Shown piece after piece: positions 9,722 through 38,615 of a stretch of DNA of 64,000 nucleotides. The stretch is taken from contig CM102283.1 in the NCBI GenBank assembly GCA_046563655.1, positions 1,116,001-1,180,000 on the forward strand. Direction: 5' to 3'. The notes beneath the pieces are model-generated. The model saw nothing but the letters and a program-made list of their open reading frames with translations. It searched no databases and was not told the DNA's origin. The DNA is from Yuukianura sp. NJ FZ-2021. Taxonomy: Eukaryota. How positions within the stretch are numbered: position 1 is the first letter of the stretch; the number at the start of each line of letters is the position of its first letter. A program made the position numbers and the translations under genes.

Positions 9722-12348
9722 CCCGGATTCCAAGAGCAGAACAATAGTGGAAGCTCTCCAGGTCTCTCTTTAGCGAGAATTCCTTAATTGGAAATTTATT
9801 TATGAGATGTTATCTTTATTGAGAGTTCCTTAATTAGAAATTGGTTTGAGGAAGAATCTCTGGATGAAGGAAAAATCGCTGGGGAATGTAATTCCCCAAT
9901 TCCCGTGATACCATCTTAAACACTTGGAGCTTAACATCGGGAAATTTTCTTAATTGACTTTAATTTCGTTCTGCCCTTGAAATTTTCCTCTTTTTTTTAA
10001 CCTAATATTTGCAATTACTAATTATTGTGCATATTGTGCAATATTGCAGTGCAATTTACTAGTAGTACCTGCAACCATATTTTTTTTTAGATTTTTGTAT
10101 TTTTGGAAGTCCAGAATTTCAACTGATAATGTTTCGTTTTAATTACTCTGGGAACTTTTTTCCCACAGAAACGGAAAGACAAACTGATAAACTCATTAAA
10201 ATTAGACTTGAAGCTAATTTTCTCAGAAACCGAAGGAACATTTATTCTGTGCTATGAATAGCAGTTCTCGTTGCAAAGTGAGATACGGTAATAGGCCTAA
10301 TAAATTCTGCTAGAAGAACTGATTGGTACTTACTGATAGCGTATATAATAATTCAGAATATATAAATTTCGAAACAGAACCTTTTGGCAGTCTACTGGCA
10401 GTGCAGTATTATTCAATATCAAAGTGGTTGGTTACTCTACTAAGTTGCGAAGAATTGCTAAACGTCAAACAGCTAAAAAGTTTACTGATCTTTGAAGTGC
10501 AACAAAATGAAAGGTGACATCAATTTATGCATTCATAAGATAGTTAATATTATTTGTTAATAAGCCACTTCACGGCAATAGCAAAACATACTAATGCCAA
10601 TTCATTTTAATTTTCCTAAAATTTATACAAAGTGACTCGTACCGATTGGGTTTTGTAAATTTAAATACTAATTTGTCATTCAGCCCAGGATGTGTAGTAG
10701 AATATTCCATTGATGATAAAATACAACTTTTGAGCAATCCTGTACTTAAGCTGCAAAAGTTCTCTATAATATCATGCATTTTTAACTTAACCAAAGCTAA
10801 TTTGGGAATGAGACTCATATTAGTGTGAAATATTTCGAAATCATTCAACACTTGATTTGTACATGTTAGGTCCGGAGAGCTGGGTGACGTTGGCTAGGTG
10901 CGACGCGGATGCATGGGCGGCGACGGTGCTAGCAAGGTCAATTCGAAGGACTCTTACGACACGGCGACTCACAATTGCTATCTCTGAAAACGTCTCGCAA
11001 CCTATGAAGTAAAATTTTTCTAGTTAATTAATTTAGTGATCTTCAATATATTTTCCAGTATGTTTAATTCATACGGAACAAAACCAGCTAAAAACCACAA
11101 AATAAATTTTAGCACTAGTACAAACCAATCTAAACGCACATATATTATTGAAATACGTGAAAATTGTATGGAGACGATACATTTAAGTGGTTGTTAAAAG
11201 TGAATAATATGCCTAAAAATTTTAACTTTTCGTAATTTTATGCACAAATACATAGATTATACAGTATAAAGTATCTGGAGGTGTAACTGAAATTACTTTT
11301 TTATAGGGTTCTGTTACAACTGGATTTTGATTCCGTCGTGAGATTTGAATCGAGCGAAATAGGAAAGACGGGAAGTGAAATTTTTTGGCTATGGAACTTG
11401 CGGAGTTGGGAAAAATGTGTCTACGTCGATCCATATTCTTTCGTAAGCATTATATTTATAAGCACACATATATACTGAAATTCTTCTTTTAGTACATTCA
11501 ACTATTACAATGCATAATTACGGTGGCATTTCAGTTTTTATTGTAACGTAGGTAAGCAAGTATTCAGATGAATTGTTTGAAATGGCAACTTTTTCGGCGG
11601 TCGTCACCCGGAACCAAACGTCAAAATTTTCGACAGATATCTTCGTCTTTACTCCAAGTGCTCGGGAATTTGACGCACTTGTGGACTTGAACAATTCTGA
11701 CGGTAAAAATTTTCGTTACTTAAAACCGTCTCGTTCCGAAGAAATTTTGAAGAAATGAGTTTTGCTTGTGACCTACGCATGGCTAACTACAGTTTGATTT
11801 AACTAAATTTAGTTGACGTTAATGCGATACTCAACACTCGCTACAAACATTTGCTTCCAAATCCGAAACATCATATTCCACCGTCATTTTCGCTGAATTT
11901 AAAAGAGCCCGGCAACAACTCAAGGTATGCTGGATTTATATTATCTTATATATTGGTACTTATTATACATAAAGATATCTTCAAAGATGTTTACATAAAT
12001 AGAGAAAATTGTATATAATAACATATCCTACAGTCTTACGGGAACGAATATCATCATTTTTGGAGACTTGTTATGGAAGAAAAGCTGGAGTAATCATGAA
12101 AACTTCTATAAATGGACAGCAACCTTTGTACATGAAGTGATTCCTCAAATCAATCAACTAAAGGTAACAAACATTATTTATAACAATTTTTTAATAAAGC
12201 GGACTATCTAAATGAAAAGCATATTTTGGGAATTGTGGCGATTGGTCAGTTAGTCCCCACTGCCCATCGCCAGGATGGAGAGTGTATGAAGTGGCCCAGT
12301 CTCACTCCCATCACACACACCAGTTCCCTTCCCTGGACAAGCCAGATT

Positions 12349-12422
12349 GAACCGGTACCTCAATTGGTAGAGAGAGCAGCTTTCCGGAAAGAAAAGGTAT
12401 TGGTTCGAGTCCCACACGGTTC
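12349..12422 (+). other. tRNA-derived sequence (pseudo-tRNA/SINE-like) inside a ~250-bp copy-1-specific insertion in PKS intron 6
   Basis: A-box-like tacctcaattggtagag, B-box ggttcgagtcc, and acceptor-like gaaccg/cggttc pairing. The anticodon arm is degenerate. Absent from the same intron of copies 2 and 3. Confidence 0.6.
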
Positions 12423-15400
12423 CTTTATTTTTTCTGGCTTGTCCTTTGTTTCCCTTTATCCCTCTCCCAACTCCTTACAGACAGACAAACCAGGCCAGCA
12501 CGTAAAGTAGCTTTCGCTACTTAAAAACTTCAAACATTTCTAGCTCAAATAAACATTTAAATCAACAGAACCAAAATCACGTAGAAACACTCCTCAAGTC
12601 GCTCCACGAAAATCAACTTCCAATTTCTAATGGTCCGGCCACTACTCAAGCACCAAATTTAGACAACTTTGGGTACTTGAAAAACTCTGTTGCGGTAGTG
12701 GGTATGAGCTGCCGATTTCCTGGTGCTAACAACGCAGATGAATTTTGGGATTTACTTGTCAGCGGGAGAGATCCAATTCGAAAGTATCCGTCCGATCGTC
12801 CTCGGCCACCCAATCACACTCTGGAGAACGAAAAGACATTTGAGGCAGGATTTTTAAAATGTCCAGTTGATGAGTTTGATGCCAAATTTTTTGGAATTAG
12901 TCCCCGAGAAGCTCCGTTTGTGGACCCACAACAACGTCTTTTGCTGGAAGTGATTTGGGAAAGTCTGGAAAATGCGAACATCAATCCACTGGGCTTGCGT
13001 AAAAGCAACACTGGAGTTTTTGTTGGAGTTTGGCAACAAGAGTATGATCGACACTTTCCAGATACAACATTGAATGCTGACGAGTATCATCATCGCTACT
13101 TGGGAAATGCGTTCAGTGCTACTGCTTCTCGAATTTCCCATTTTCTCGGACTCTATGGACCAAACTATGCCATCGAGTACAAAATTATTTTCAAAAATTC
13201 AGAAAATTTGAAACTTTAAGGAACAGATTTTTTTTGTAGAAGCGGTTGTTCAAGTAGTTCCAGTGCCGTTCATCTTGCTTGTCAGAGTCTGCGCAGAGGT
13301 GAAAGTACAGTTGCAATCGCCAGTGGCGTAAACCTTGTACTCCATTTTGTGAATCCTCTTGCTGGCGACGACTCGGATGCTTTTGTGCTTTCTGGTGATT
13401 TTAGGTGCAAGACGTTTGATGAGAGGTAACAAATCCAAACATAAATAGACATAAGTTTGGGTAGTTTTCACTAAAACTGGTGTACTAGAATGTTGATGAA
13501 TAAGTAGCGGAAGATGAACCGTAGTCCACCGTGCTGTAACGTAGTGCAATCTGCACAAACACAGCGCTGCATAGCCGTCAAGAAATAATGGTTTTCAGTA
13601 TTAAAGAGATGGTTACGAAATAATTGTGGCTGACTTTCTAGACAGACGGACAAACAGACAGAACGGCTCAACAAATAAGTAGCTTTTGCTACTTTATAAA
13701 GAACATTTCGCTACATTTTAAAGAATTCATTTCACTAAAGTGGAAATGTTTGTATTTTTTTTTTAGAGCTAATGGGTTTGTACGTGCAGAGGGTTGTGGC
13801 GCCGTCGTGCTGAAACCGTTTATGAATGCCGTACGTGATGGTGACAATATCATTGGTTTAATCCGGGGAACAGCGTTGAATAATGATGGCCCAGCTACAA
13901 GTTTCGGAACTCCAAATGCGAAAGCGCAAGAACGAGTTTTCCGAGACGCTTTGAACGATGCAGGAGTGGCACCTAACGAAGTTAGCGTCGTTGAAGCTCA
14001 CGGAACAGGAACAATTGTTGGAGGTTAAATTGAACTTTTCTCTTTCTAGTCTGAATTGTAAAAAAATGGTCAATTTAAAAAAAAATTTCAGACCCAACCG
14101 AAATGTATGCCATCGGCCAAGTTTACTCAGACGGACGCAGTGAGCCACTCTTGGTTAGCTCAGTGAAGACGAATATTGGACATACAGAAGCATGCGCAGG
14201 AATGGCTGGACTAATCAAAATTCTGCTGTGTCTTAAGCACAAACAAGTCCCACCACATCTTCATCTTCAGAATCTCAATCCCAGGATTAACTTGGAAAAC
14301 ATTCCTGCAGTAATTCCAGTGAAGGTTACTGATTGGATTGCGGAAAAAAGAATTGCAGCAGTGAGCTCATTCAGCATGAGCGGCACCAATGTGCATCTCA
14401 TTGTTCAGGAAACTCCAAACGGCATAACTTCTTACGTCAAACCCAGCGTAAAGCCGTTGGAAATTATTGGAATTTGTGCCAAATCGGAAGAAGCTCTGGA
14501 AGCACTTTGTCAAAAGCACATTGCTCACTTGGAAGCAAATCCGAACCTTAATATCAGCGACATCGCTTGTACTCTGAACACCAGCAGAGCAACAATGCCT
14601 CATCGTATTGCTCTTGTTGCCAAGGATACAGCACAACTCGTTGCGAAACTACAGAGCAGGTCGTACGTAAATGGAAAAGCTGCGACACAAAAACCAAAAG
14701 TAGTTTTTCTATTTACGGGTCAAGGGTCACAATACTTTGGCATGAGCAAAAGTTTATATGAGACTTCATCTGTATTCAGAAGTGCTTTGAACCAATGCGA
14801 CACAGTTTTCAAGGCACACTTAAACTGTTCTCTTAAGCAAGTCCTTTGGGAAAATGATGCTATGTTGCAGGAAACAATTTATTGTCAACCGGCAATATTT
14901 TCAGTAGAGTTCTCCCTTGTACAGCTTTGGAATTCGTTTGGAATTTATCCTGACTTTGTTCTTGGACACAGCGTTGGTGAGTTCTGCGCCGCAGTGTGCG
15001 CAGGTCTGCTGTCATTGGAGGACGCAATGGCACTAGTTATTGGCAGAAGCAGACTTGTGGATTCACTTGAAGGTGGTAAGATGATGGTAGTCAAAACGTC
15101 TCCAGCCGAAACATATGGCTTGATCCAAGCATTTGCTGCCCAATCGAGTAATCGTTGGATAGATGTCGCTGCTGAAAATGCAATGGAGGAAGTTGTAGTT
15201 TCAGGTACAATAGAAAACGTTGAACAATTTGCTACGTTTTGTACATCACGTGGATTCAAAACCCAAGTCATCAGCGCTTCTCATGCTTTTCATTCTCGTG
15301 AAATGGATCCCGTTTTGAATGAATTTGGGCAAACAGCTTCTCAAATCTCTCACAAAACTCTCAATTTTCGATACATTTCTGGAACTTTGGCACGAGAATT

Positions 15401-17480
15401 GAATGTAATCGATTTTGATTGTTCTTATTGGGTAAGACATCTTCGAGACACCGTGAGGTTCTATGACGCTGTGATGCACTTTAATCGATTGATTGAAGAA
15501 CCAAAAGTATTTGTTGAAATCGGAAGTCAACCGACTCTATTGAGCTTGACGATGGCCAATCTACCTAACACTTCAACTGCAACATTTTGCCCTTCACTGC
15601 GCAAAAGTGAAGATGACCTGATGTGTATTTTGAGCTCTTTGTCCAAAATGTTTGTGGCTGGCGTAGATATATCTTGGGATAAATGGTATTCAGGAGCCAC
15701 AAAAATTTCGTTACCGACTTATCCGTTTCAGCGCCAAAAATTTTGGATTCGAAATGAAGACGATGGAATTCCACTTTCTCCACTGCTGCACCCCCTACTT
15801 GGACGACACGTACCATCTCCCGTGTCTGATCAGGTTTATGCGCAAGTACTGTCACCAAAAGAGTTAAAGTACGCAAGTGATCATCGCGTAGCAGAAAAAA
15901 TTATTCTGCCTGCCGCGGCTTACCTTGAAACAATCATGGCCGCCGGTTGTCAAGTTTTGCAGGGTGGAAAAGTCCATGTTCCATTCACAGTTGAAAATCT
16001 GCAAGTCGAAGCTCCGTTGGAACTCTCTAAATCCTGCCAAGTTCAAACCATTGTGCGCAGCCTCGGCGAACAAGATGATTTTAAGTTTGAAATTGGGATC
16101 CACAAACAACTTTCCCGCGAAAATTTAGACAAATGGAAAAGATACGCTGTTGCCGTATTTGGGCCCAGCCTTGATGTTGCCACTCATTCTAATATGGAAA
16201 TTTATGCAATTCAAGAACGGATGACTCCAACAGAATCAGTTGCAGAAGCATATGAAGGAATTGCAAAAGCTGGAATCCAGTTTGGACCAAAATTTCAGTC
16301 CATTGTTCATGCATGGAAGGGTGACACGGAACTACTCACTGAGATCCAAATCCCAAACGATTCGCACTCATACATTTGCCATCCAATTGTTTTGGATGCC
16401 ATGATTCAAACATTTGCACTTCGTACGGCATTGCTTTCTACTGAAAAACCAGAACTCCAACTTCAACTTCCAGTGAGCATCAAAAAGTTTACTTGGTTTT
16501 CACGTGAACCTTCACAAAAAGTCTATGCCTATAGTACCTGGAACACCGATGCGCAAAGTCAGGGAACCGTTTGTCTTCTGTCTGAAGCTGGGGAGACTTT
16601 AGGTGTCATGGAGGGTCTCGAGTTGGTCGTTACCACGGTAGCCAACTTTCTCCGCGTGCTAAACACTGAATCCAACTTGTTACCTGGATTCATGGAAGAA
16701 GTCTGGCGTCCAACTAGCGGAATTACACGAAACAGAATTGATCCAATGAAATTTCAGCTCCGACAATCAAAACATACTGCAGCAACAATGGCATTCATTA
16801 ACTCAGAAGTAGAACCTTACTATGAACATACTATGGAAGTTTTCAACAATGTACTTGTTTGTTGTCTACTTCGCGCAATCATTGAATGTCAATGGCCTTG
16901 GCCAAGTGTAGGCGCAACAATTCAAACTGATGACTGGGCTGCCGTGTCTCCGCCAGGCCTCCGTATTGCTAAAACTCCAAAACTGATGGAAATTCTAGAA
17001 ATTCATAATTTCATGAAAAAAGTTGACAACAACACGTTTAAAATTCTTAAAGAAATACCTTCCTTGAAAGAACTGGAAGATAAAATTGAGCTTGCATTCA
17101 AATCGGATGCCAAATTGATGACAAACATTGAATTTCAGTTTGCCAAAAGAACTGAGACGAATTTTACTGCGGTTCTCTCGGGATCCATTTCCCCAGTTCA
17201 GTACATGTTTTCAGAAGATATCACTGACGTCACAGGAGCTACAGTCCATGCTGAAAGTTAGCACTAAAACATGATATGATTCAGTATTATTGATAATATT
17301 GTAGTTGATTTATTTGAACTATTTTATTTTATGTTGAAATAGCCTTTGGTGCTCGTGAGACCGCCGAACTAGCAGCTAGCCAATTGGTTGATTTTGTCAG
17401 TTCCAGCGATAGAAGTTCCGACGTGCTGAGGATTCTGGAAGTTGGTGGTGGTTCTGGAGCAACGTGCGGATTTGTGATCG

Positions 17481-18422
17481 CGTAGCAGGTGAAATGGTCA
17501 AAACAATTTGGCCAAAAGTGAAATGATCAGAGGTGAAAAGGCCAGAAGTGAAATGGCCAAAGAGTGAAAATATCAGAATTGAAATGGCCAAAAAGTGAAA
17601 AGGCCAAAATCTAAAAACGCCAAAAAGAAATTGGCCAAAAAGTGAAATGACCAAAAAGTGAAAACGCCAAAAAGTGAAAAGGCCAAAATATGAAAAGGCC
17701 AAAAAGTGAAAAAACCAGAATTAGGAAAAAATTACTTTCAGTGGGTAACTCGCATTTTCTTTATTTTTTATTTTTATTTGCGAATATGACCCCCCTGACC
17801 ATGAAAAAAAATTTTTTGGCCCGCTTTCAAAAATTTCGAATTTTCGGGAAATTATGAAAAATGCAATTTCGCTATAAGGGCACACGTTAATTTTTTCTCA
17901 AAATAGGTCTTAGCTTATATTTTGTTAGGTTAGGTTATGTTTTTAAATGCTTAAGCAATTTTGATATAGCATTTAGGTTAGGTTTGGTTAACTTTCAAAA
18001 AATGGGATTTTTTTGTTTAGAAAAAGTTAACATGGAGTATTTTCCCATTTTTTACATCTTCTAAAAATTCGAAATATTTCAAGCAGATCGCAAAAAAATA
18101 TATTTTAGTGGCAGGGGGTCATATTTGTATTAAAAAAAATGTAGAAAACCGAGTTACCCACTGAAAGTATTTTTTTTCCTAATTCTGGTCTTTTCACTTT
18201 TTGGCCTTTTCATATTTTGGCCTTTTCACTTTTTGGCGTTTTCACTTTTTGGTCATTTCACTTTTTGGCCATTTTCTTTTTGGCGTTTTTAGATTTTGGC
18301 CTTTTCACTTTTTGGCCATTTCAATTCTGATATTTTCACTTTTTGGCCATTTCACTTCTGGCCTTTTCACCTCTGATCATTTCACTTTTGGCCAAATTGT
18401 TTTGACCATTTCACATGGAATC
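17481..18422. mobile_element. Non-autonomous foldback/TIR DNA transposon with 8-bp TSD, inserted in the PKS copy 1 MT exon
   Basis: TSD tgtgatcg at 17473-17480 and 18423-18430. Long inverted arms (near-perfect for ~270 bp, then imperfect) built of ggccaaaaagtgaaa subrepeats. Absent from copies 2 and 3. Confidence 0.92.
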
Positions 18423-21233
18423 TGTGATCGATCGATTGCAACAAGAAAACATTCCATTTCAGTACACATTTACCGACATTTCACCACTCTTTCTGCATGA
18501 GGCTAGCAAAAAGTTCACTAAAGGAGTGTCTTTCGCCGTGTTCAACATTGAAAACGATCCGATTGGTCAAGGGTTTTCTCCAGAAGAGTTTGACGTCATC
18601 ATTGCAACCAACGTGATTCATGCAACGGCAGACATTAGACAAACCCTGCGAAATTTGAATCTCGTACTCCGTAACAACGGACTTCTTATCATCGCCGAAA
18701 CATTTAAAGAACCAGAATCTCTGGTGCTCACATTTGGACTTTTGGACGGATGGTGGCGTTTTACCGACGACCGGAAAAGTTCTCCACTGTGTGCTGCAGA
18801 CCGTTGGAAACTCGGGTTTGAGCAAGAAGGATTTGACGAAATTGAAACAAAAGAAATATTTGGACCATATTGCGGAACTGTAGCTGGACGTAAAGTAAAA
18901 AATGGAAAACAAGAAGAGTCGGATTCAAACTCGTGGCTTTTTGTATCAGATGAATCCGAACTAGAAAACATTTTGAAAGAAAAAATGAAACTAGCTGGAC
19001 GGAAATGTTTGGAATTTTCGGAAGATGTTCCTCAAGGCCTTGAAGGAATCATGTTTCTTTGGACTTCTCCGACAGTTTACGAAGAAAATCAATTCAAGTG
19101 TCAACAATTGCTTCATTTTTGTCAAAAATTTGTATCGGCATATCAAGATTCCAAAATTAAACCTAAATTTATTTTGGTGACACGCGGTGTTTACTACTTG
19201 GGAGATGCGGGACCCGGAAATCCAAATTCATCAACAAGTACATCTTTTGTACGAACGTGGGCACATGAACACCCAGACTTCAATATAGCTTCGGTTGATC
19301 TTGACCAAGATGAACAGAATCCAGAACGAGAAGCAACCGAATTATTTGCAACGATTTGTTCCAAAGAAAAAGAAATGTTCAAAGCCATACGAGAAGACAA
19401 AGTTTTTATGCAACGACTTGTTGCTTTGAATAACAAAAACTTGGCAATTCCTTTGCCAAACTCAAATAGATTCAAAATCGTCAACCCACCGACCAAAAGT
19501 TTAAACGATTTGCAAATATCGGTTGCCCCAAAACTTGAACCAGTTCAGGACGAAGTTGAAGTTGCAATTCGTGCAACGGCACTTAACTTTCGTGATCTTT
19601 TTGTTATCTTACGTCCGGAGGGATTTGATCTTCCAGAAAATTTGAACACGGAACCAGGTCTGGACATATCTGGAATTGTATCAGCGGTTGGACCAAAATG
19701 TTCAAAATTCCAAATCGGAGATGAAGTATTTGGATACGTTTCAGGCGGAGGGTTGGCATCGCATGTTATAACGTCTTCGCAAATGCTAATTCGGAAGCCA
19801 CTGGAAATGACTTTCGCATCCGCAGCAACAATTCCTGTAGCATTTCTAACGGTTTACTATTCCTTCCACAAGTGCGCAAAACTTTCTTCTGGAGACAGAG
19901 TTTTGATTCATGTAGCCACAGGCGGCGTGGGTCTCGCTGCAATTCAAATGGCAAATATCATTGGCGCTGAAATTTTTGCCACGGCTGGAAGTAGGAGAAA
20001 GAGAGCGTACCTAAGATCAATTGGAATCAAACATGTCTACCATTCCAGGAATACGGATTTTGGTGATGAAATTTTGAGAGACACCGATGGAACAGGAGTA
20101 AACGTTGTACTAAATTCCTTGACTGGACCAAATTTTAAAGAAGCTTCACTCAAAGCTTGTGCTCAAGGCGGCAGATTTGTGGAAATTGGGAAAATTAATA
20201 TTTTCACGAAAGATGAAGTGAACAGTATGCGCCCTGATGTCAAATATTTTATAGTAGCACTTGATAAAAGTACTATGGAAGAACGAGAAGAATCGTATCG
20301 ACTCTCTGCTGCGGTGGAACAGGAATTTGAAAAAGGAATTTACAAAGGACTTCCGCATGACACGTTTTCTCTGGACATGATTCGAGAAGCTTTTTTCTAC
20401 TTTCAAGAAGCGAAACATATTGGGAAAATTGTTGTCACAATTCCAGAACCGAAGGCTTCCTCTGACGGAAAAATTTATTTCCAAAACAATCTTTTCAATT
20501 CACAAAGTACTTATCTCATCACTGGAGGTTTGGGTGGCATCGGAATTGAAGTTGCCAAATGGATGACTAAACTGGGAGCACAAAACATTGTCCTCGTTGG
20601 ACGAAATCCACCAACCAATAGCTGTCAAGAAGTTTTGAATCAGTTGAATGCTGGTGGTTGTCGCGTATTAGCTGTACAAGCTGACATTAGTGCGTACGCG
20701 GAATGCGAAACATTGCTGCAATCAATTGTAGATTTGAATTTTCCACCACTTCGTGGCATTATGCATGCAGCAGGAGTCTTGTCAGATGGAATTGTTGTGA
20801 ACCAATCGTGGGATAGATTCGAAGCAGTTTTTGCACCCAAAGTCAGAGGAACATGGAACTTACATAAATTGACTACTGGATACGACCTTGAATTTTTCAC
20901 AATGTTTTCAAGCATGGTGGCAATTCTTGGACTTCCTGGACAAAGCAATCATGCAGCAGCAAATAGATTTTTGGACTCGTTTACACACTACAGAAATTCA
21001 ATTGGTCTTCCTGCAAACAGCATAAATTTTGGTCCTTGGTCAGACGTGAGTCAAATTAATTTTTATGTAACTAACCGTGCAGTTTTTTACTCCTAACTGC
21101 AACAGGTTCTCTGTCTCTCTTTAAAACCATTTGCTGCGAATTGGTACATTGCTCCGAAAGTCAGATTGTTCCGAAATAATATTGTTTACTAACCTAACCA
21201 ACCCAAAGCTTGTGACTTAAAGCGCAACCTAAC

Positions 21234-21746
21234 CAGGGTTTAAAAAAACATGTTCAAAAATAAAAAAAACAAAACACCGTGTTTTTTTTGTTTAAAACAT
21301 GTTTTCTTTGTTTAAAACGTTTTTTTTAATTTTGTGCTTTCACGATTGAGAATTACACGGACAAATCCAATTAAGTCGCAAAGTGCCAGTTTTATGACAC
21401 AGAATATGACTTTAAGAATGTTGCCCGACTTTACTAACTTTCTAGATGCATCGATAATGAAAATAATTCAATGTCGGAATAACGACCTAAGAACGTTAAG
21501 AAGCAGACTCGTGTCTTTTCAACACAATTTTTACCATTTTTGGTTGACACTCCAGTTGGTTAATATAAAAGCCATGCAAAATCACCACACATGCATTTTC
21601 TGTAGCTTAATTGACTTTTTTCCTGAATTTTTGGAGCATTTTCTCATTTTGTTTTAAATCAAACATTTCGCCTTGTTTTAAACAAGTGTTTTAAACATGT
21701 TTTTAACACCAATTAAAAACATTTGATTTAAAACAACTTTACCCTG
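21234..21746. mobile_element. hAT-like MITE in the last intron of PKS copy 1
   Basis: Ends CAGGGT...ACCCTG, with 8-bp direct repeat aacctaac on both sides. Absent from the equivalent introns of copies 2 and 3. Confidence 0.7.
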
Positions 21747-24164
21747 AACCTAACCTTACAATTTATAACCTTAGTACCTCGGCAATGCTATAAGCACATT
21801 ATTGTAGTTTATTCAGCTTTGGAGCTACATGTTTGTCGGAGAAATTTACCTTTCGGAGCAATTGTTTTTGTGGCAATTCATTCGGACCAATTTGGTTCTT
21901 CCACTGTAAATCTGCTTAAATCTTCTTCCTAACCTTCTTAAATTTTCTTTTTTTAACAAAATTTAAGAATAGGAAGAGAAAGTTGATTTTGATTTTGTAG
22001 ATTGGAGTTGCAGCAAATCTTAAAGCAGCGGAGAGTGGTATACTTGGCATACGCTATTTTACTCCATCACAAGGGCTCAATTCAATTGAAAGAATTCTTC
22101 GAACACAACGTCGTAACGTAATGGTGGCGGAGATCTGTGATTCTAAAAGTCTTAGACAACTTTGCCGTTTGGGAAACTATTTCGAGGAAATGAAAATGGA
22201 TGTCACTCAAAGCGAAATTGGATTGGAGGCATACAAAGCCATTATTGACGACATTAAAAATTCAAGTCCAGAAGCACGCCAAGAAAAAATTGAAAACTTT
22301 TTGGAAAAAGCCATCAAGGAAACATTGCGAATTCCTGAAAATGAGCAGTTGGATCGAGACCAAAATTTTTCCGAAATCGGAGTCGACTCACTCATGGCAA
22401 TGGAACTGCGCAATCGCCTTCAAGGAATGTTGGGAGACAAGCAGTTGACTCTAAGTGCTCTGCAGGAAAACAGAACCATAAGAACCTTATCGGCCCACAT
22501 GGCACATCTTATGAACTCCGATGAATCGGTGGTATCCGTTGCAGAATTGGTGGCTAAAGATGTGATTTTGGATCCTGAGATCCGACCCACGTCAAAACCA
22601 GCTTCAAAACCAAGTGAATTTAAAAACATTTTGTTAACTGGAGCTACAGGTCACTTGGGAGTCAATCTCATCCCAATGTTGCAAAATGAAAATCCAAATT
22701 TAGTGATTCATTGCATTGTGCGGGGCAAGAATTCAGAGGAAGTGGAAGGCCGCTTGAAGGAAACTCTTCAATTGTATTCTTTGCTTGAAAAAGTGAATTT
22801 TGAAAAAATTCGAGTTTTTGTTGGAGATTTATCCAAACCAAGTTTCAGTTTACCACTGGAGGAGTATGAAGCATTGGCAGAGAAAATCGACGCCGTCCTG
22901 CACTGTGCTGTTAAATCAAACTCATTCGGTGAAGGGAGTTCGCGCAGTAACAATGTCGGACCTACCGTCAACGTATTACATTTTGCTTGTACCGGAAATA
23001 CAAAACCTGTACTCTATGCATCATCCTTGCTAGCGGCGACTACTGTAGCCGAGAATGGCTCTTTGGCAGAAGATTTTCCAACTGTGGACGACGTTGGGAC
23101 TTCCATTAAAAATAGCTACATGCTTTCAAAATTCGTCTCCGAAGTTCTAATGTCGCAAGCAAGTGAACGTGGAATCCCAGTAACAGTCATACGCTACGCA
23201 AGTATTTTTGGAAATAGTTTAACAGGATTTGTTCCAACGGAGAAAAATCATGTGTGGGGAATACTCTCTTCTTGCATTCGAGTGAGGAAGTTTCCTAGCA
23301 TTGGTCAAAATGGAATTCCTATTATGGCGGTTGACACTGCGGCGCAAGTCACTGCGCAGATCTTCTTGCGAGATTCAATGGAGACAGGAGTATACAACTT
23401 GACAAGTTCATCAGCAATATCCGAAGAGGGCATTGCATCTGTATTTTCAAAATATGGAATCGACGGGGAATTTGTACCACTTTCGGAATGGCGGGATTTA
23501 GTTTTTGCAGAACTTGATAAAAATGAGCTTGGTCCATTTGTTAGCCTTTATGGAGACGATGAGCAGACGCAGACGCTAAGCTACCTTGGAATTCATCCTC
23601 TGGCAAACCAAATCTCTGCTCTAAAGTTTAATTCTGTAAATGACAAAGTACGACGAAACTGTCCAGATTTTGAGAAAAGTATTGTTCCAATTGACAAACT
23701 TTTAGGAAAACATCTTGAGTACTATTATGACCTGTCACGAAAGAAATAACGCGAATTCCCAATGCTTCATTTGAAAAATTTTTGCGTTCCTAGATTTAAG
23801 TTTCGGTTTCTGAGGTGTGGAACTTTACATGGATAATTTTTCTCTCGAATATCAATATTAGCCATGCTTGAGTTTTTTCTAGCCTGATCCTAAACTTCAA
23901 CCTCGTATTGTCGAATTTCATTAAAACTTATTTCCTCTTCATGCTCGATCAAACTAGGAAAATAAAAATGATACAAATAAAATTTTAATTCTTATACAGT
24001 TAATCAAATGCATTGTTAATTGCCTCAAGTGTTTTCGACCTTAAAATACAAGTCGTACATGGCTTCGCTAATCTTTTCAAGTTGCTTTGATTTCAACGAC
24101 AGATCTCAACGAAAGTGTTTTATTTTTGTTTAAAATGATTCTTTACCATTTGCCGTTCATATAT

Positions 24165-24410
24165 CTTACACTTCCGTAGTTATCGTTGAACCGTGCAACT
24201 GCTTTTACCATCCTTTTCATCTACCCGGACATGGTGGAATGGTTGGGGTCGGCAGTATGTTTTTTTTGTGTTTGGCGGCTCGGGAGTCCGTGCGACGAGA
24301 CGATTTGCATTTATTTTTTAGTTCCAAAGACAAAACAAAAGACTCTGGCGGAAATACAGGAAATTTACAGTAAACGAATTCCAGATTCGCCGCTGCATCA
24401 ATGTGTTTAG
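24165..24410 (+). pseudogene. Degenerate duplicate of the sugar transporter's last exon
   Basis: TAFTILFIYPDMVEWLGSAVC...VPKTKQKTLAEIQEIYSK matches 7762-8006. It has indels and no upstream exons. Confidence 0.85.
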
Positions 24411-26148: not shown

Positions 26149-26615
26149 TAGTACCCGCAATAATTATTTTCCCTAGATTTTAGGAAATCCAGGATTATTA
26201 CAGAAATTATAATTCGCTGGTTTAGTTAATTTGGGAACTTTGTTCTTACAGAAACGGAAAGGCAAAATGATACAGTCATTAAAATTTTATTTGGACGTGA
26301 CCTATTTCTTTCAGGAAAATATAAAATATTTAAGGCAACATTTATTGCATACTATGAAAAGAGGAGTTCTTTTTGTAAAGTTAGGCATAATAATGGGCAT
26401 AATAAATTCTGCTAGGGAACTCACTGAAACTATTGATAACGTACATAATAATGCACCATATATAAATTTGGAAGCAGAACTCGGGCAGTCTACTGGAAGC
26501 AGTCTGTTATTCAATATCAAAGCGTTTTGGTTATTCTACTGAATTGCGACAAATCGTTGAACGTTAAGCTGCTGAAAAGCTTATTTTGATCAACTCATCT
26601 TCGAAGTGCAGCAAA

Positions 26616-29600
26616 ATGAAAGGTAACAACGACTTACAAATATTCCTAACAGAGTTAATATTTTCCAAAATATTTTGTATTTCCGAACCTTAATTTATAA
26701 ATACTTTGATGAAAGTTAAAGACGAATTTTAATTATTTTGTTAATTTAATTATGATATTATTTATTAATAAACAAATTCAGAACAATAGGGAAACAAGAT
26801 GCCGCTTCATTTTAATTTTTCAAAATATCCACACCAACCAACTGATTTGTTCCGATCGGGCTTTGTAAATAATTTGTTAACCAGCCCCACACTGTGTATT
26901 ATTAGAATAAACAGTATTATAGTTCACAAAGGGGACAAGAATGTTAACTTTGAAAAACAAAAAAGAGGAAAACGTTTCTGCAGTGTCTAGCTTTTCATGA
27001 ACAAGCCTGAACTAAAAGCTGCAAGAAGTCTCTAGGATGTCACGCTTTTAACTTGATCAAAGAGGAATGAGAAAGATAGTTTGAAATATTTCGAAGTCTT
27101 TCAACTTTTCATTTATATGCCTTAGGTTCGGAGTGCTGGGTGACCTTGGCTAGGTGCGATGAGGATGCATGGGCAGCGACGGTACTGGCAAGGTCAATTC
27201 GAAACACGCTTACGACACGGGCACTCACAATTGCTATTTCCGAAAATGTCTCGCAACCTATGAAGTAAAATTTTTGCTATTTATATAACTCGGTATATTT
27301 TACTTGATTCGGGTTAATTTATATACAAACTAGTTAAAAAACCAAAAAATGAATTCTAGGACTAGTGCTTACAAACAAATCAAAATGGACATAAAATGTT
27401 CTTTAAATACGCATTGGTGAGAAATGATAGAGGAATTATACACTAAACTGGTGGTTACAGTGACATGTCATGCCTGTTGTTTTAACTTTTTGTAATTTTA
27501 CAATTAGTAGATGTAGTACCTACAAGTACTTTTGGAGTAATACATTGTATCTGGAGGTGTAACTTAATTAATTTTCTATAGAGCTCTGTTACAACTGGAT
27601 TTTGATTCCGTCCTGAGATTTGAATCAAGCAAAGTAGGAGAGGTGGCAAGTGAAATTTTTTGGCTCTGGAACTTGCAAAGTTGGGGAAAATGTGTCTACA
27701 TCAACCCATATTCTTTCGTAAGTGTTATATTTTTATGTAATAACTGCTTATTTTATGTTTTTAGCACAGTTATGTACTCAGGCTTACCATCTAAATAAAA
27801 AGTCATATTGTGGAATAGGACTGGTAGAAGATTCAACATTTTTCTTAGTACTTCAAATATTACAATGCATTTTAATTTCTATTCTGGCGTAGGTAAGCAA
27901 GCATTCCGATGAACTCTTTGAAATGCCAACTTTTTCGGCAGTGGTAACCGGGAACAAAGCGTCGAAATTTGTGACGGATATCTTTGTCTTCACACCAAGT
28001 ACTCGTGAATTCGACGCCTTTGTGGACATGAACAATTCTGACGGTAAAAAATGTAAAAAATTCTGAAGAAACGTATAGAGAAAAGAGTTTTACTTGAGTT
28101 AATTACCGTAAGCAGAAGCTAACCAGAGCATCATTTAACTAAATTTAGTTGATGTGATACTCAACACTCGCTACAAGCATTTGCTTTCAAATTTGAGACA
28201 TCACATTCCACCGTCATTTTCGCTGAGCTTGAAAGAGGTCTTCAACAATCCAAGGTACGATGGAATTATATTTTCTTACATGTTGGTACTTATATGTTTA
28301 AATGGTTGTATAAATAAAGAAACCTTTATAATAAAAACTATTATACAGTCTTACGGGAGCGAATGTCATCATTTTGGGCGACCTTTTACGGAAGAAATGC
28401 TGGAACAATCATGAAGTTCTTGATAAATGGAAAGCCACTTTTGTACATGAAGTGATTCCTCAAATCAAACAACTGAAGGTAACAAATAATAAAAACACTC
28501 AATTTTTTAGTATACCGAACTCACTGGAAAATGTAATTCGGGGATGTTGGTATGCTTCCACCATAATTTCTGTCAATGGACAGTCAGACAGACAAGGTCG
28601 ATACGTAAAGTAGTATTTGCTAGTTAGAAACTACAAATATTTTTTAGCCTGAATGAATATTTAATTAAATCAACAGAATCAAAGTCATGTAAAGACACTG
28701 CTCAAGTCTCTCCAGGAAAATCAACTTCCAGTTGCTATTGCTAATGGTCTGGCGTCTACTCAAACACCAAATTTAAACAGCTTTGGGTACTTGGAAAACT
28801 CAGTTGCAGTAGTCGGCATGAGCTGCCGATTTCCTGGTGCAAACAACGCAGATGAATTTTGGGATTTACTCGTCAGTGGAAGAGATCCAGTTCGAAAGTA
28901 TCCGGTAGATCGTCCTCGTCCACCCAATTACACTCTGGAAAACGAAAAGTCATTTGAGGCAGGATTTTTAAAATGTTCAGTTGATGAGTTTGATGCCAAA
29001 TTTTTTGGAATTAGTCCCAGAGAAGCTCCTTTTGTGGACCCGCAACAACGTCTTTTGTTGGAAGTTATTTGGGAAAGTCTGGAAAATGCGAACATAAATC
29101 CACTGGGCTTGCGTGAAAGCAACACTGGAGTGTTTGTTGGGGTTTGGCAACAAGAGTATGATCGACAGTTTCCAGATACAACATTCAATGCTGATGAATA
29201 TCATCATCGATACTTGGGAAACGCTTTCAGTGCTACTGCTTCTCGAATTTCACATTTTCTTGGACTCTTTGGACCAAACTACGCCATCGAGTATAAAATT
29301 AATTTCCAATAACAAAATTTGAAACTTTGTATTAACTTTGATTTTTCTTTTGTAGAAGCGGTTGTTCAAGTAGTTCTAGTGCCGTCCATCTTGCCTGCCA
29401 GAGTCTGCGCAGAGGTGAAAGCACGGTTGCAATCGCCAGTGGCGTAAACCTTGTACTCCATTTTGTCAACCCCTTGCTGGCGACGACTCGGATGCTTTTG
29501 TGCTTTCTAGTGATTTTAGGTGCAAGACGTTTGATGAGAGGTAACAAATCCAAATATAAATTAGATATAAGTTTGGATGGTTTTACCAAAACCGTTGTAC

Positions 29601-32600
29601 TGGAATGTTGATGAATAAGTAGCGAAAGATGAACCGCAGTACACCGTGCAGTAACGTAGTGCAGTTTACACAAACACAGCACTGTGTAACCGCCAAGAAA
29701 TAAAGATTTTCATTATTAAAGAGATGATTTCGAAATAATTGCCGCTGATTTTCCAGACAGACAAAACAAGCGGACCAGAAAGCCTCGAAAAAAAACAACA
29801 TTTCAAAAACTCATTTCATTAAAGTAGAAATTTTTGTATTTCTTTGTTTCAGAGCTAATGGGTTTGTACGTGCAGAGGGTTGTGGCGCCGTCGTACTGAA
29901 ACCGTTTATGAATGCCGTACGTGATGGTGACAATATCATTGGCTTAATCCGGGGAACAGCGTTGAATAATGATGGTCCAGCTACAAGTTTCGGGACTCCA
30001 AATGCGAAAGCGCAAGAACGTGTTTTCCGAGACGCTTTGAACGACGCGGGGGTAGCACCTTACGAAGTTAGCTTGGTAGAAGCTCACGGAACAGGAACAA
30101 TTGTTGGAGGTGAAATTGAACTTTTCTGAAATTTATATTGTAAATTGTAAATAAATGATCCAATTTCAAAAATATCTCAGACCCAACTGAAATGTATGCC
30201 ATCGGCCAAGTTTACGCAGAGGGCCGAAGTGAGCCCCTCTTGGTTAGCTCAGTGAAGACAAACATTGGGCACGCAGAGGCATGCGCAGGAATGGCTGGAC
30301 TAATCAAAATTCTGCTTTGCCTCAAGCACAACAAAGTGCCACCACATCTTCATCTTCAAAAATTGAATCCCAGGATTAACTTGGAAAACATTCCTGCAGT
30401 AATTCCGGTCAAGGTTACTGATTGGATTGCAGAAAAAAGAATTGCAGCAGTTAGCTCATTCAGCATGAGCGGAACCAATGTACATCTCATTGTTCAGGAA
30501 ACTCCACACGTATTTACTTACAACGCCAAAACACCTACAGAACGCAACTTAAAGCCGTTGGAGATGATTGGAATTTGTGCCAAATCGGAAGAAGCTCTGG
30601 AAGCACTTTGTCAAAAGCACATTGCCCACTTGGAAGCAAATCCGAACCTTAATATCAGCGACATCGCTTGTACTCTGAACACCAGCAGAGCAACAATGCC
30701 TCATCGTATTGCTCTTGTTGCCAAGGATACAGCACAACTCGTTGCGAAACTACAGAGCAGGTCGTACGTAAATGGAAAAGCTGCGACACAAAAACCAAAA
30801 GTAGTTTTTTTATTTACAGGTCAAGGGTCGCAATATTTTGGCATGAGCAAAAGTTTATATGAAACTTCATCTATATTCAGAAGTGCTTTGAACAAATGCG
30901 ACACAATTTTCAAATCACACTTAAACTGTTCCCTAAAAAAAGTTCTCTGGGAAAATGATGCTATGTTGCAGGAAACAATTTATTGTCAACCGGCAATATT
31001 TTCAGTAGAGTTCTCCCTTGTCCAGCTTTGGAATTCATTTGGAATTTATCCTGACTTTGTCCTTGGACACAGCGTTGGTGAGTTCTGCGCCGCAGTGTGC
31101 GCAGGTCTGCTGTCATTGGAGGACGCAATGGCACTAGTTATTGGCAGAAGCAGACTTGTGGATTCACTTGAAGGTGGCAAAATGATGGTAGTCAAAGGTT
31201 CTCCAGCCGAAACGTGTCGCCTGATTCAAGCATTTGCTGCTCAATCGAGTAACCGTTGGATAGATGTCGCTGCTGAAAATGCAATGGAGGAAGTTGTAGT
31301 TTCAGGAACAAAGGAAAACGTTGAAGAATTTGCTTCGTTCTGTACATCGCGTGGACTCAAAACACAAGTCATCAGCGCTTCACATGCCTTTCATTCTCGT
31401 GAAATGGACCCAGTTTTGAATGAATTTGGCCAAATAGCATCACAAATATCGCAGGGAAGTCTCACTTGTCGCTATATCTCTGGAACTTTGGCACGAGAAC
31501 TGAATGAAATCGACTTTGATTGCTCTTATTGGGTGAGACACCTTCGAGACACTGTGAGGTTCTACGACGCCGTGAATCACGTTAATCGATTAACTGAAGA
31601 ACCGAAAGTTTTGTTGAAATCGGAAGTCAACCGACTCTATTGAGCTTGACGATGGCCAATCTACCTAACACTTCAACTGGAACATTCTGTCCTTCACTGC
31701 GCAAAAGTGAAGAGGACCTGATGTGTATTTTGAGCTCTTTATCCAAAATGTTTGTGGCTGGCGTAGACATAACCTGGGATAAATGGTATTCAGGAGCCAG
31801 AAAACTTTCCTTGCCGACTTATCCGTTTCAGCGCCAAAAATTTTGGATTCGAAATGAAGACGACGGAATTCCACTTTCTCCTATACTTCATCCGCTTCTT
31901 GGGCGCCACGTACCATCTCCCGTATCTGATCAGGTCTATGCGCAAGTATTGTCAGCAAAAGAGTTAAAGTACGCAAGTGATCATCGCGTAGCAGAAAAAA
32001 TTATTCTGCCAGCCGCCGCTTACCTTGAAACAATCATGGCCGCCGGTTGTCAAGTTTTGCAGGGTGGAAAAGTCCATGTGCCATTCACAGTTGAAAATCT
32101 GCAAGTCGAAGCTCCGTTGGAACTCACTAAATCCTGCCAAGTTCAGACCATTGTGCGCAGCCTCGGTGAGCAAGATGACTTCAAATTTGAAATTGGGATC
32201 CACAAACAACTTTCCCGCGAAAATTTAGACAAATGGAAAAGATACGCTGTTGCCATATTTGGGCCCAGCTTGGATGTAGCCACCAATTCTATAATGGAAA
32301 TTCAAGCAATTCAAGGACGCATGACCCCGACGGAATCAGTTGCCGAAGCATATGAAGGAATTGCAAAAGCTGGAATCCAGTTTGGACCAAAATTTCAGTC
32401 AATCGTTCAAGCATGGAAGGGTGACACGGAACTACTAACTGAGATCCAACTCCCAAACGATTCGCACTCATACATTTGTCATCCAATTGTTCTGGACGCG
32501 ATGATTCAAACATTTGCACTTCGTACGGCCTTGCTTTCTACTGAAAAACCAGAACTCCAACTTCAACTTCCAGTGAGCATCAAAAAGTTTACTTGGTTTT

Positions 32601-35600
32601 CACGTGAACCTTCACAAAAAGTCTATGCCTATAGTACTTGGAACGCCGATGCGCAAACTCAGGGAACTGTTTGTCTACTGTCTGAAGCTGGGGAAACACT
32701 AGGTGTCATGGAGGGCCTCGAACTAGTTGTTACCACGGTAGCCAACTTCCTCCGTGTGTTGAACACTGAATCCAATTTATTACCCGGATTTATTGAAGAA
32801 GTTTGCCGTCCCACTAGCGGTATTACACGAAACAGACTTGGTCCATTGAAATTTCAGCTCCGCCAATCAAAACATACTGAAGCAACAATGGAATTCATTA
32901 ATTCCGAAATAGAACCACATCATGAGCAGGCTGTGGTGATTTTAAACAACGTAGGTGTTTGTGTTCTACTTCGCGCAATCATTGAATGTCATTGGCCTTG
33001 GCCAAGTGTAGGTCAAACAATTAAAACTGATGACTGGGCTTCTGTGGCTCCGCCTGGCTTGCTGATTGCCAAAACACCGAAACTGATGGAAATTCTGGAA
33101 ATCCATAATTTTATGCAAAGAGTTGACCAAAACACGTTTGAAATTCTTAAAGAAATACCTTCCTTGAAAGAACTGGAAGACAGAGTTGAGTTGGGATTCA
33201 AAACGGACTCAAAATTGCTGCAAGAAAGTGCATTCGGTTATCATTTTGCCAAAAGAATTGAACGGAATTTTACAGCCGTTCTATCGGGATCCATTTCTCC
33301 AGTCCAGTACTTGTTTTCGGAAGATACAACTGATGTCACAGGAGCTACATTTCATGCTGAAGGTTAGTAATGAAATATAATATAAAGTATGAGTTTCACA
33401 ACATTTGTAGAAAGTGCAGAATATAATAAGTCCCGCTTCTTTTTATCCCCTGCCACCCGTTTTTTACGGTTCCGGCGATTGGTTGATTTCAAATCTGTGA
33501 CGTCACCTTCCAAACTGTTTTCATTTATGAAACCAATGTTCCGTGTTTATAAATTTTGTGAATTCAAAGAGTTTGAGAAGAGACTTCATAAATTCAATAC
33601 TTTCTCTAACTTATTCAGTAACGCAGATCCTCTAATATAATTAATGTATTTAGTTTAACTATTTTATTTCTTATTGAAACAGCATTTGGAGCTCGTGAAG
33701 GGGCTGAACTAGCGGCTAGCCAGTTGGTTGATTTTGTCTCTTCTGATCAAAAGAGTTCGAGCTCAGGAGTGCTAAAGATACTGGAAGTTGGAGGCGGTTC
33801 TGGGGCAACGTGTGGATTTGTGATCGATAAATTGCAGCAAGAAAACATTCCGTTTCTGTACACGTTTACAGACATTTCACCACTATTTCTGCATGAAGCA
33901 AGCAAAAAGTTCACAAAGGGAGTGTCTTTTGCGGTTTTCAACATTGAAAACGATCCGATTGGTCAAGGATTTTGTCCAGAAGAGTTTGACGTCATCATTG
34001 CAACTAACGTGATTCATGCAACGGCCGACATTAGACAAACCCTGCGAAATTTGAATCTCGTACTCCGTAACAACGGACTTCTTATTATCGCCGAAACATT
34101 TAAAGCACCAGATTATCTGGTTCTCACATTTGGATTTTTGGATGGATGGTGGCGATTTGCCGACGACCGAAAAGATTCTCCACTGTGTACTGCAGACCGT
34201 TGGAAATTGGCATTTGAGAAAGAAGGATTTGGTGAAATAGAAACCAAACATATACTTGGTGTATATTGCGGAACTGTAATTGGACGTAAAATAGAAAACG
34301 CAAGACAAGAAGCAGCTGATTCAAACTCGTGGCTTTTTGTATCAGATGAATCCGAACTAGAAAAAATTTTAAAACAAAAAATGAAACTAGCTGGACGGAA
34401 ATGTTTAGAATTTTCGGAAGATGTTCCTCAAGGCCTTGAGGGAGTCATGTTTCTCTGGACTTCTCCGACAGTTTACGAAGAAAATCAGTTGAAATGTCAG
34501 CAACTGCTTTATTTTTGTCAAAAATTTGTATCGGCATATCAAGATTCCAAAACTAAACCCAAATTCATTTTGGTGACACGCGGTGTTTACTACTTGGGAG
34601 ATGCAGGACCCGGGAATCCAAATTCAGCAACAAGTACATCTTTTGTTCGAACATTTGCACACGAACACCAAGACTTCCATATAGCTTCAGTTGATCTTGA
34701 CCAAGATGAGAAGAATCCAGAACGAGAAGCAACCGAATTATTTGCAACGGTTTGTTCCAAGGAAAAGGAAATGTTCAAAGCCATTCGAGAAGACAAAGTT
34801 TTTATGCAACGACTTGTTGCTTTGAATAACAAAAACTTGGCACTTCCTCTGCCAAATTCAAATAGATTCAAAATCGTCAACCCAGCAACCAAAAGTTTAA
34901 ACGATTTGCAAATTTCGGTTGCCCCAAAACTTGAACCAGTGGAGGACGAAGTTGAAGTTGCAATTCGTGCAACGGCGCTTAACTTTCGTGATCTCTTTGT
35001 TATCTTGCGTCCGGAAGGATTTGATCTTCCAGAAAATATGACAACAGAACCGGGTTTGGACATAGCTGGAATTGTGTCAGCGGTTGGACCAAAATGTTCC
35101 AAATTTCAAATCGGAGACGAAGTATTTGGATATGTTTCAGGCGGAGGGTTGGCATCGCATGTTATCGCGTCTTCACAAAAGTTAATTCGGAAGCCACTGG
35201 AAATGACCTTCCCATCCGCAGCAACAATTCCTGTAGCATTTCTTACGGTTTACTATTCCTTTCATGAGTGCGCAAAACTTTCTTCTGGAGACAGAGTTCT
35301 GATTCATGTAGCCACAGGCGGAGTGGGTCTCGCTGCAATTCAAATGGCAAATTATGTTGGCGCTGAAATTTTTGCAACGGCTGGAAGTAACAGGAAAAGA
35401 GCATATCTAAGATCAATCGGAATCAAACATGTCTACCACTCCAGGAATACTGATTTTGGTGATGAAATTTTGAAAGACACCGACGGAACAGGAGTGAACG
35501 TTGTATTAAATTCTTTGACTGGACCAAATTTTAAAGAAGCTTCACTCAAAGCTTGTGCTCAAGGTGGCAGGTTTGTGGAAATTGGGAAAATTAATATTTT

Positions 35601-38600: not shown

Positions 38601-38615
38601 TCACGTAAGAAATAA
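26616..38615 (+). CDS. GT8(glycogenin-like)-KS-AT-DH-cMT-ER-KR-ACP-R polyketide synthase, copy 2, with three 1-bp homopolymer indels. Exons 26616-26622, 27126-27264, 27582-27717, 27893-28043, 28149-28254, 28349-28478, 28677-29290, 29356-29540, 29853-30109, 30181-33362, 33683-36442, 36849-38615
   Basis: Same exon structure and motifs as copy 1. Frameshifts at ~29470 (C run), ~31610 (T run) and ~35715 (A run). Functional status uncertain. Confidence 0.8.

Follow-up and report, generated by a model that had tools for sequence, protein, structure and literature searches.

How does a gene that reads like a single module of a bacterial type I polyketide synthase (PKS) come to lie among animal genes, and is it still a working gene? 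This question is raised by a 64,000-nucleotide stretch of the Yuukianura sp. NJ FZ-2021 genome assembly (GCA_046563655.1, contig CM102283.1, positions 1,116,001 to 1,180,000 of the forward strand), here called the window, for which an earlier note, made from the sequence without database searches, had described one such gene, with introns and a methyltransferase, as a horizontal acquisition. The explanation that best fits the data as a whole, and that we consider highly probable, is that this gene (copy 1) heads a tandem array of three highly reducing type I PKS genes that each encode a single module of about 3,000 residues, belong to a clade with springtail PKSs and would release their product by reduction. 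Besides the triplication and the fact that the family is known from springtails, the analysis added three points to the earlier description, namely additional upstream exons, a transposon in the methyltransferase exon, and a deletion in the reductase domain.

Copy 1 occupies 11582..23749 on the forward strand and consists of nine exons, the ends of which were determined from alignments of the three copies: 11582-11702, 11813-11924, 12034-12163, 12569-13176, 13240-13425, 13767-14023, 14092-17256, 17343-21045 (interrupted by an inserted element) and 22001-23749. All eight introns have GT-AG ends, and six of the eight precede the acyltransferase (AT) domain. When the exons are joined with the omission of 17473-18422 (950 bp), they form a single open reading frame of 3,026 codons plus a stop codon. 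The start had been placed at 12677 in the earlier note and has to be moved about 1.1 kb upstream, to an ATG at 11582, by the addition of three small exons (11582..12163, forward strand) that are conserved in all three copies, each with its splice sites. Together with the beginning of the ketosynthase (KS) exon these encode 185 residues free of stops, about 165 of which lie ahead of the KS. The 185 residues weakly match the N-terminal extension of two Orchesella dallaii proteins, P0253 (E-value 1.8e-7) and P0246 (8.8e-7), and we know of no Pfam family for these exons.

Pfam matches give the domain order KS, AT, dehydratase (DH), C-methyltransferase (cMT), enoylreductase (ER), ketoreductase (KR), acyl carrier protein (ACP) and terminal thioester reductase (R), all on the forward strand. 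The KS (12677..14267) is divided by three short introns and matches ketoacyl-synt and Ketoacyl-synt_C in four pieces (best 6e-45); its translation holds the catalytic Cys-His-His set, with the Cys in SGCSSS and a His in each of EAHGTGT and KTNIGH. The AT (14703..15668; Acyl_transf_1, 1.3e-60) carries GHSVGE as well as the specificity motif HAFH, which is typical of malonyl-type AT domains. In the DH (15789..16637; PKS_DH_N 2e-19, PS-DH 1e-19) the catalytic His is found in DHRVAEKIILP and the Asp in LDAMIQ. The cMT (17343..18834) matches Methyltransf_12 (6.2e-13) over its distal part, and its best matches among solved structures are PsoF (108 bits) and the cMT domains of DisA and CurJ (105.8 bits). 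It is followed by the ER (19546..20436; ADH_N, ADH_zinc_N at 2.1e-20 and ADH_zinc_N_2, with LIHVATGGVG), the KR (20506..21045; KR, 9.3e-61, with TGGLGGIG), the ACP (22301..22498; PP-binding, 1.7e-12) with its Ser in GVDSLMAMEL, and the R domain (22634..23350; NAD_binding_4, 2.2e-40), in which TGATGHLG and YMLSK represent the TGxxGxxG and YxxxK motifs. These motif and Pfam matches are far above chance. The motifs quoted in the earlier note were all recovered in forward-strand translations of 12506-23749, namely FDAKFFGISPREAPFVDPQQRLLLE, KTNIGHTEACAGMAGLIK, PPHLHLQNLNPRI, VFLFTGQGSQY, HAFH and LPTYPFQRQKFW, and likewise LEVGGGSG, NVIHAT, LTFGLLDGWWRF, GVDSLMAMEL, TGATGHLG and YMLSK; its statements that the cMT keeps its S-adenosylmethionine (SAM) motif and His, and that the AT has HAFH, are thus borne out.

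Copy 1 is the first of three head-to-tail PKS copies that lie at 11.6-23.7, 27.9-38.6 and 42.2-53.1 kb of the window and share 89-91% DNA identity, their introns aligning as well. Copy 2 (27923..38615, forward strand) has frame breaks as assembled near 29472 (-1), 31609 (-1) and 35714-35719 (+1), and copy 3 (42230..53113, forward strand) near 44242, in the same C-run as a break of copy 2, and near 46783 (A6 to A5). Purifying selection has acted on all three lineages for most of the time since duplication: in the frame of copy 1 the pairwise ratios of nonsynonymous to synonymous divergence (dN/dS) are 0.165, 0.156 and 0.169 over approximately 2,870 codons, with synonymous divergence (dS) of 0.26-0.31 and no stop, and the introns diverge by 0.11-0.29 among the copies.

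Five sequencing runs match the stretch, none of them recorded as RNA, and the read-derived contigs of four of them (X1, X3 and X4, from one sample, and X5, from another study) were placed on positions 17000-36999, a range that ends ahead of copy 3. At 29472 an X1 contig has an extra T at its full depth (247.6 of 247.6), and at 35719 one A fewer is present at all depth in X1, X3 and X4; both differences restore the frame of copy 2. At 31609 only loose contig ends are found, with the letters of copy 1, to which they probably belong. Of the five frameshifts, then, a minimum of two, those contradicted by the reads, are assembly or haplotype differences. As a separate observation, the assembly and the read contigs differ by single bases in short runs, giving false or haplotype-specific frameshifts, and the same kind of single-base run error may occur in other genes of this assembly.

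The interruption of the eighth exon, within the methyltransferase, turned out to have another nature than that of the introns. Positions 17481..18422 hold a 942-bp sequence absent from copies 2 and 3, with inverted arms of about 360 bp (17489-17844 versus 18414-18064) that are 91% identical, and flanked by an exact 8-bp target duplication, TGTGATCG, at 17473-17480 and 18423-18430. By these features it is a non-autonomous transposon-like element with terminal inverted repeats, of the foldback or miniature inverted-repeat (MITE-like) kind, and not an intron. Motif I of the cMT, LEVGGGSG (around 17440), lies upstream of the element, and NVIHAT (around 18600) lies downstream with the remainder of the domain. 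Directly after GFVIA, two codons past the insertion point, the element contributes an in-frame TAG, so that copy 1 of the assembled haplotype is predicted to be knocked out. Removal of the element by splicing was considered and rejected, as no GT-AG pair excises it exactly and the 950-bp stretch that would be skipped ends in TG..TC; on inspection of the sequence, a cryptic GT...AG pair could yield only a product with an in-frame deletion of 13 residues. Read word depth reaches approximately 5,400-11,200 over 17.0-19.0 kb, in the three bins that hold the element, versus approximately 45-490 in the other bins of copy 1 (X1 and X3); this excess of some 15-70 times over neighbouring bins indicates that the element belongs to a high-copy repeat family.

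The reads also contain the exon without the element. Contigs of X1, X3 and X4 connect 17472 straight to 18423, with depths of 161, 228 and 17, lengths of 242, 432 and 250 bases, and 0, 0 and 1 differences from copy 1, respectively; the contigs of X5 contain no such joint. The depth of the empty-site contigs falls within the range of neighbouring bins. Because the same runs also span introns and intergenic DNA, the exact 950-bp skip represents a DNA allele. The cMT exon is hence continuous in copies 2 and 3 and in an allele of copy 1 itself: an uninterrupted copy 1 exists in one sample, and the insertion is polymorphic in the reads.

Comparison with solved structures, which ranks scores and is not a phylogeny, places the protein much nearer to modules of cyanobacteria (CurL) and actinobacteria (DEBS) than to animal FAS or FAS-like PKSs. 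The large exon that carries the C-terminal part of the KS, the AT and the DH (KS-C/AT/DH exon) scored 373 bits with CurL, about 290-300 with DEBS, 231 with mycocerosic acid synthase (MAS) and 184-198 with fungal non-reducing PKSs, followed by LovB (154), EcPKS2 (143) and EcPKS1 (142); animal fatty acid synthase (FAS) was absent from the 60 solved matches listed and would thus fall below 125 bits. For the N-terminal KS exon the scores were 120.6 (CurL), 118 (GfsA), 100-113 (DEBS) and 72-74 (FAS), and for the ER-KR part 335 (MAS), 285-288 (other bacterial modules), 254 (CurK ER), 211-213 (FAS) and 180 (EcPKS1), while the R domain matched MxaA best (116.6 bits). By score rank, KS and AT are therefore not closer to FAS than to PKSs, and the other traits of animal FAS and FAS-like PKSs (AFPKs), namely a pseudo-methyltransferase, a thioesterase or no release domain, and dense introns, are not those of copy 1. 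This agrees with the earlier note, which had held the gene to resemble bacterial modular PKSs more than animal FAS and to end in a reductase, not a thioesterase. The gene is nevertheless no module of a prokaryotic multi-module assembly line, being a stand-alone, intron-bearing gene among animal genes; its likeness to bacterial modules is one of domain logic.

The closest protein found, P0005, is 49% identical, and its gene on metagenome contig L001 has the same exon ends, including the three KS introns and those between DH and cMT and between KR and ACP, as well as matching N-terminal exons. A first homologue search, in which longer proteins were requested, was dominated by multi-module bacterial PKSs with scores summing over modules, and P0005 was its one useful match; relatives were also sought with P0005 as the query among proteins of 1,109-3,530 residues, of which 120 were listed. 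The animal-named proteins among these 120 were 21 springtail proteins only (15 of O. dallaii, one of O. cincta and five of Folsomia candida), 32-36% identical over 94-100% of P0005 and mostly with the same Pfam set, including NAD_binding_4. After these the list continued with single modules from Chloroflexi and from cyanobacteria such as Moorena, Okeania and Calothrix, which were 31-34% identical and had the order KS-AT-DH-cMT-ER-KR-ACP.

Trees were built for three parts of the protein. For KS-C, linker and AT, each row was trimmed to its match with residues 1-560 of the large exon, and the best match had to cover at least 480 of these; 273 proteins passed, 129 of which were kept (P0005, all passing proteins from its search, and 23 named bacterial proteins from the first search) and 144 omitted, these being mostly multi-module actinobacterial proteins. 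The resulting FastTree phylogeny of 130 rows contains a branch with support 100 that separates 37 rows from 93 bacterial or unnamed rows; the former comprise the window, P0005, P0242, P0287, 20 springtail rows and 13 unnamed rows. A quick IQ-TREE analysis of 59 of these rows gave the same split (SH-aLRT 100). Within the 37-row side, the window forms a separate deep branch with P0005, P0242 and P0287 (support 93-95), sister to the springtail-bearing clade (99-100). The R-domain tree (133 rows: 129 of 145 matches with at least 60% cover, the three window copies and the protein of contig L003) sets 32 clade rows apart from 101 others with support 98, and the cMT tree (76 rows, copy 1 excluded) keeps the 39 other rows together on one side with support 84. 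The trees thus place the window PKSs in one clade with the springtail PKSs and with eukaryotic metagenome genes, apart from all sampled bacterial sequences, and the nearest relatives of this clade outside eukaryotes are cis-AT modules with a cMT, found in cyanobacteria, Chloroflexi and myxobacteria. The agreement of the KS-C/AT, cMT and R trees implies that the window and springtail genes inherited the whole architecture from a single ancestor, so that a complete KS-to-R arrangement was already present in the common ancestor of the eukaryotic clade. It was observed in addition that the L001 gene stops after the ACP (9167-9793) and has no R, and that L003 (832-1995) encodes the end of a KR followed by ACP and R at 39.6% identity, which points to loss or gain of the release domain within the family.

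Several known systems resemble these genes. The springtail type I PKSs, found by genome mining in F. candida ('phenolphthiocerol synthesis polyketide synthase type I Pks15/1-like'), O. cincta and O. dallaii, have the same Pfam set and order, similar lengths (about 2,980-3,230 residues versus 3,026) and multi-copy expansions, and they stand on the same side as the window genes in all three trees; they differ in being 32-38% identical (blastp) over the KS-C/AT/DH exon, and the window lies on the sister branch, outside the springtail-bearing subclade. We know of no product of the springtail enzymes, and a literature search, which did not extend to supplements, gave genome-mining reports only and no product assigned in print to PKSs of the springtail type. 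The cMT-bearing cis-AT modules of cyanobacteria (CurL, CurJ, CurK and JamJ, of the curacin and jamaicamide type, and proteins of Moorena and Okeania) include in CurL the best solved match of both KS and AT; the ER domains of CurK, CurF and JamJ and the cMT of CurJ are also among the solved matches. They are 30-32% identical over the KS-C/AT/DH exon and share a His at the 'YAAAN' position of the KR, whereas the window genes are stand-alone, with eight spliceosomal introns, a terminal R and an N-terminal extension, and a long, fully supported branch lies between the two groups. The R domain of the myxalamid synthase MxaA aligns with that of the window at TGxTGxxG and YxxxK with about 30% identity; R domains of this type release chains reductively, as an aldehyde or alcohol. 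The ER-KR part has its best solved match in MAS, a bacterial iterative synthase with one reducing module, whose chains carry methyl branches; MAS obtains these branches from methylmalonyl-CoA and has neither cMT nor R, from which the window genes differ by their HAFH-type AT and their cMT. Finally, animal FAS and the FAS-like PKSs EcPKS1 and EcPKS2 are likewise type I megasynthases encoded by animals, and their domains follow the same overall order; the window genes differ from them by an intact-looking cMT in place of the pseudo-methyltransferase and by a terminal R, where FAS has a thioesterase and mollusc AFPK clades 1-3 have no such domain. FAS and AFPK genes are also intron-dense throughout, unlike mollusc PKS genes, according to one study (PMC10764717), and the few, mostly N-terminal introns of the window genes are likewise unlike those of FAS and AFPK genes.

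On this basis a mode of action can be proposed. The lone module would act iteratively, extending a starter with malonyl units; the cMT, using SAM, would methylate some of the alpha carbons, after which the methylated chain would be fully reduced. The R domain would then use NAD(P)H to release it reductively, giving a methyl-branched aldehyde or, if a second reduction follows, the alcohol. By analogy with characterised enzymes, the predicted product is therefore a methyl-branched, reduced aldehyde or alcohol.

The array is flanked upstream by an exon of a sugar transporter and downstream by two tandem pancreatic-type lipase genes, a scramblase gene and a CYP2-type P450 gene (8.7e-67), with short introns; the description in the earlier note of an intron-containing animal gene is in keeping with the GT-AG introns and with the presence of these animal-type P450, lipase and scramblase genes on the same contig. 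The closely similar lipase genes lie at 55780-57000 and 58570-59760 (forward strand; Pfam Lipase, 4.8e-17 for one exon). A C-terminal P450 fragment at 61539-61775 (forward strand), just upstream of the similar P450 gene at 62.0-63.8 kb, is probably a duplication remnant. At the other end of the window, 1-4578 (forward strand) contains long open frames with many repeats of about 40 residues (GE[KR]RSPI[RK]HGDNLFPEGEFYKRP...), followed by a Ser/Thr/Gln-rich stretch; the repeat frames have no Pfam match. Moreover, a repeat of about 380 bp occurs downstream of copy 1 (24136-24507) and near the sugar-transporter gene (7730-8109), with 82% identity.

A number of observations weigh against the account given above of three tandem, reductively releasing PKS genes of springtail type and transferred ancestry, and they concern the setting of the genes, their condition, their chemistry and their origin. 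As to the setting, ten of the 20 top clusters matching the flanking P450 exon bear organism names, all at 41-50% identity; four of the ten are springtail clusters (O. cincta, O. dallaii and, twice, Allacma fusca), and the other six are from sea urchin, chiton, snail, ray and, in two cases, birds. On the sequence evidence a springtail or a related animal is, by a small margin, the likeliest host. That the PKS array derives from bacterial contamination or misassembly, as its protein similarity to bacterial PKSs might suggest, is nonetheless practically negligible as a possibility. The genes have eight GT-AG introns with matching exon ends in L001 and a G+C content resembling that of the flanks across the window, animal genes lie on both sides within one window, a eukaryote-style transposon with target duplication is inserted in copy 1, the stretch is present in read-derived contigs from two studies, and a pattern scan of prokaryote genomes gave no close relative. 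Contamination is rejected, and the array is resident in an animal chromosome. As to condition, all three copies are broken as assembled, copy 1 by the transposon, copy 2 by three frameshifts and copy 3 by two, of which the reads contradict only two. In addition, copy 1 misses 18 bp (HLEEYN) after 22918 in its R domain relative to copies 2 and 3, and the missing residues align to the conserved NFLYPY of MxaA; the deletion is real, because contigs of X3, X4 and X5, which represent both studies, run through it ungapped. The deletion, together with the TAG of the element and its poor fit to splicing, would agree with copy 1 being a dying or dead paralogue that encodes no working enzyme. We take this to be possible, though on the whole unlikely, because an uninterrupted allele is present in the reads of one sample at depths like those of neighbouring bins and because the dN/dS of copy 1 against the other copies is 0.156-0.165, with zero stops in 2,871 codons; the loss of six residues, moreover, may or may not impair the R domain. 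As to chemistry, the iterative action, starter, chain length and product proposed above follow from PKS logic, and the KR of all three copies and of P0005 carries GQSNHAAAN, in which His replaces the usual catalytic Tyr. Full reduction is for that reason an assumption. The ratio of His to Tyr at this position is 44:42 in the set from the P0005 search versus 1:173 in the set from the first homologue search, and many cyanobacterial or Chloroflexi relatives share the variant. The His is either a lineage marker or part of a different catalytic arrangement; a literature search on the HAAAN/YAAAN motif returned nothing useful. Alternatively, the module could extend, methylate and reduce a ready-made fatty acyl starter just once before reductive release, giving a 2-methyl-branched alcohol or aldehyde. 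The closest solved or named prokaryotic relatives of the module (CurL, DEBS) are single-use assembly-line modules, and the uncharacterised N-terminal region could take part in starter loading. We consider this quite doubtful: MAS is the best match of the ER-KR part (335 bits), no partner PKS or loading enzyme lies next to the PKS genes within the window, and type I PKSs that consist of one free-standing module with a full reducing loop, among them MAS and the fungal highly reducing PKSs, as a rule act iteratively.

The remaining objections concern origin. A long stem (0.31 + 0.17 substitutions per site in IQ-TREE) leads to the eukaryotic clade, the best bacterial identities are just 31-33% with no donor standing out, and nesting of the clade inside bacteria is beyond the reach of the trees, which are unrooted and were built from rows that did not include animal FAS, AFPK, canonical animal PKS, fungal or amoebozoan PKS sequences. 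The KS, methyltransferase and R phylogenies called for in the earlier note therefore separate a springtail-type clade from the sampled bacteria, and leave aside its position relative to animal FAS and canonical PKSs. A reading without any transfer holds that the genes belong to an ancient PKS lineage of eukaryotes or animals that passed down vertically, perhaps within or sister to the canonical animal PKS clade of echinoderms, vertebrates and molluscs, and that the bacterial look arises since KS domains of PKSs generally score nearer to bacterial PKSs than to FAS. It fits unrooted trees in which a long branch with full support sets the eukaryotic rows apart and does not place them within a bacterial subgroup, and it fits intron positions and an N-terminal extension that are common to the clade; PMC10764717 further gives PKSs for every animal phylum examined except sponges and ctenophores, and describes mollusc PKS genes as having few introns, concentrated at the N-terminus, as in the window genes. 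We regard vertical inheritance as unlikely all the same, since not a single non-springtail animal protein was named among the 120 listed for P0005, cyanobacterial single-module proteins with the same KS-AT-DH-cMT-ER-KR-ACP order cover 99-100% of P0005 at 31-32% identity, and the His variant of the KR is common to the window and the related cyanobacterial modules. Published analyses also treat the Folsomia PKSs as horizontally transferred: the 2017 Folsomia genome study gives 36 antiSMASH biosynthetic clusters, 30 of them type I PKS, and flags most genes in the clusters as horizontal transfers as well (PMC5490193), and Lin et al. 2024 cite a Folsomia PKS as horizontally acquired and suggest the same for many arthropod PKSs (PMC10764717). 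The pattern scan mentioned above, made with the KS-C/AT/DH exon by a method that detects near relatives only, found no relative in prokaryote genomes. Taken together, an old transfer from a bacterium to an animal, followed by intron gain, seems the most likely origin, and we favour it with some reserve.

For the family as a whole the known picture is unchanged, the springtail type having been reported from Folsomia in 2017 (PMC5490193); what is new here is a set of further members on a deep, separate branch, for which a horizontal origin, already in print for the family, is plausible. Few PKSs encoded by animals are of bacterial type. The locus offers three young paralogues under purifying selection, a complete gene model of 3,026 codons, and a natural knock-out allele, with the transposon in its cMT exon, beside an intact one, which makes it a convenient place to begin studies of expression and metabolites and to date, from the shared introns, when the family arose. 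Tentatively, and with low confidence, the window genes together with P0005 (L001), P0242, P0287 and L003 could make up a second, deeply separated lineage of the PKS family known from springtails, possibly residing in animals outside the sampled springtails. If so, one ancient acquisition of a complete cyanobacterial-type KS-AT-DH-cMT-ER-KR-ACP-R synthase would have seeded a widespread, actively duplicating, intron-bearing gene family of soil invertebrates. Its members, by way of a KR with His in place of Tyr, would produce aldehydes or alcohols with methyl branches that serve in the cuticle, in signalling or in defence.

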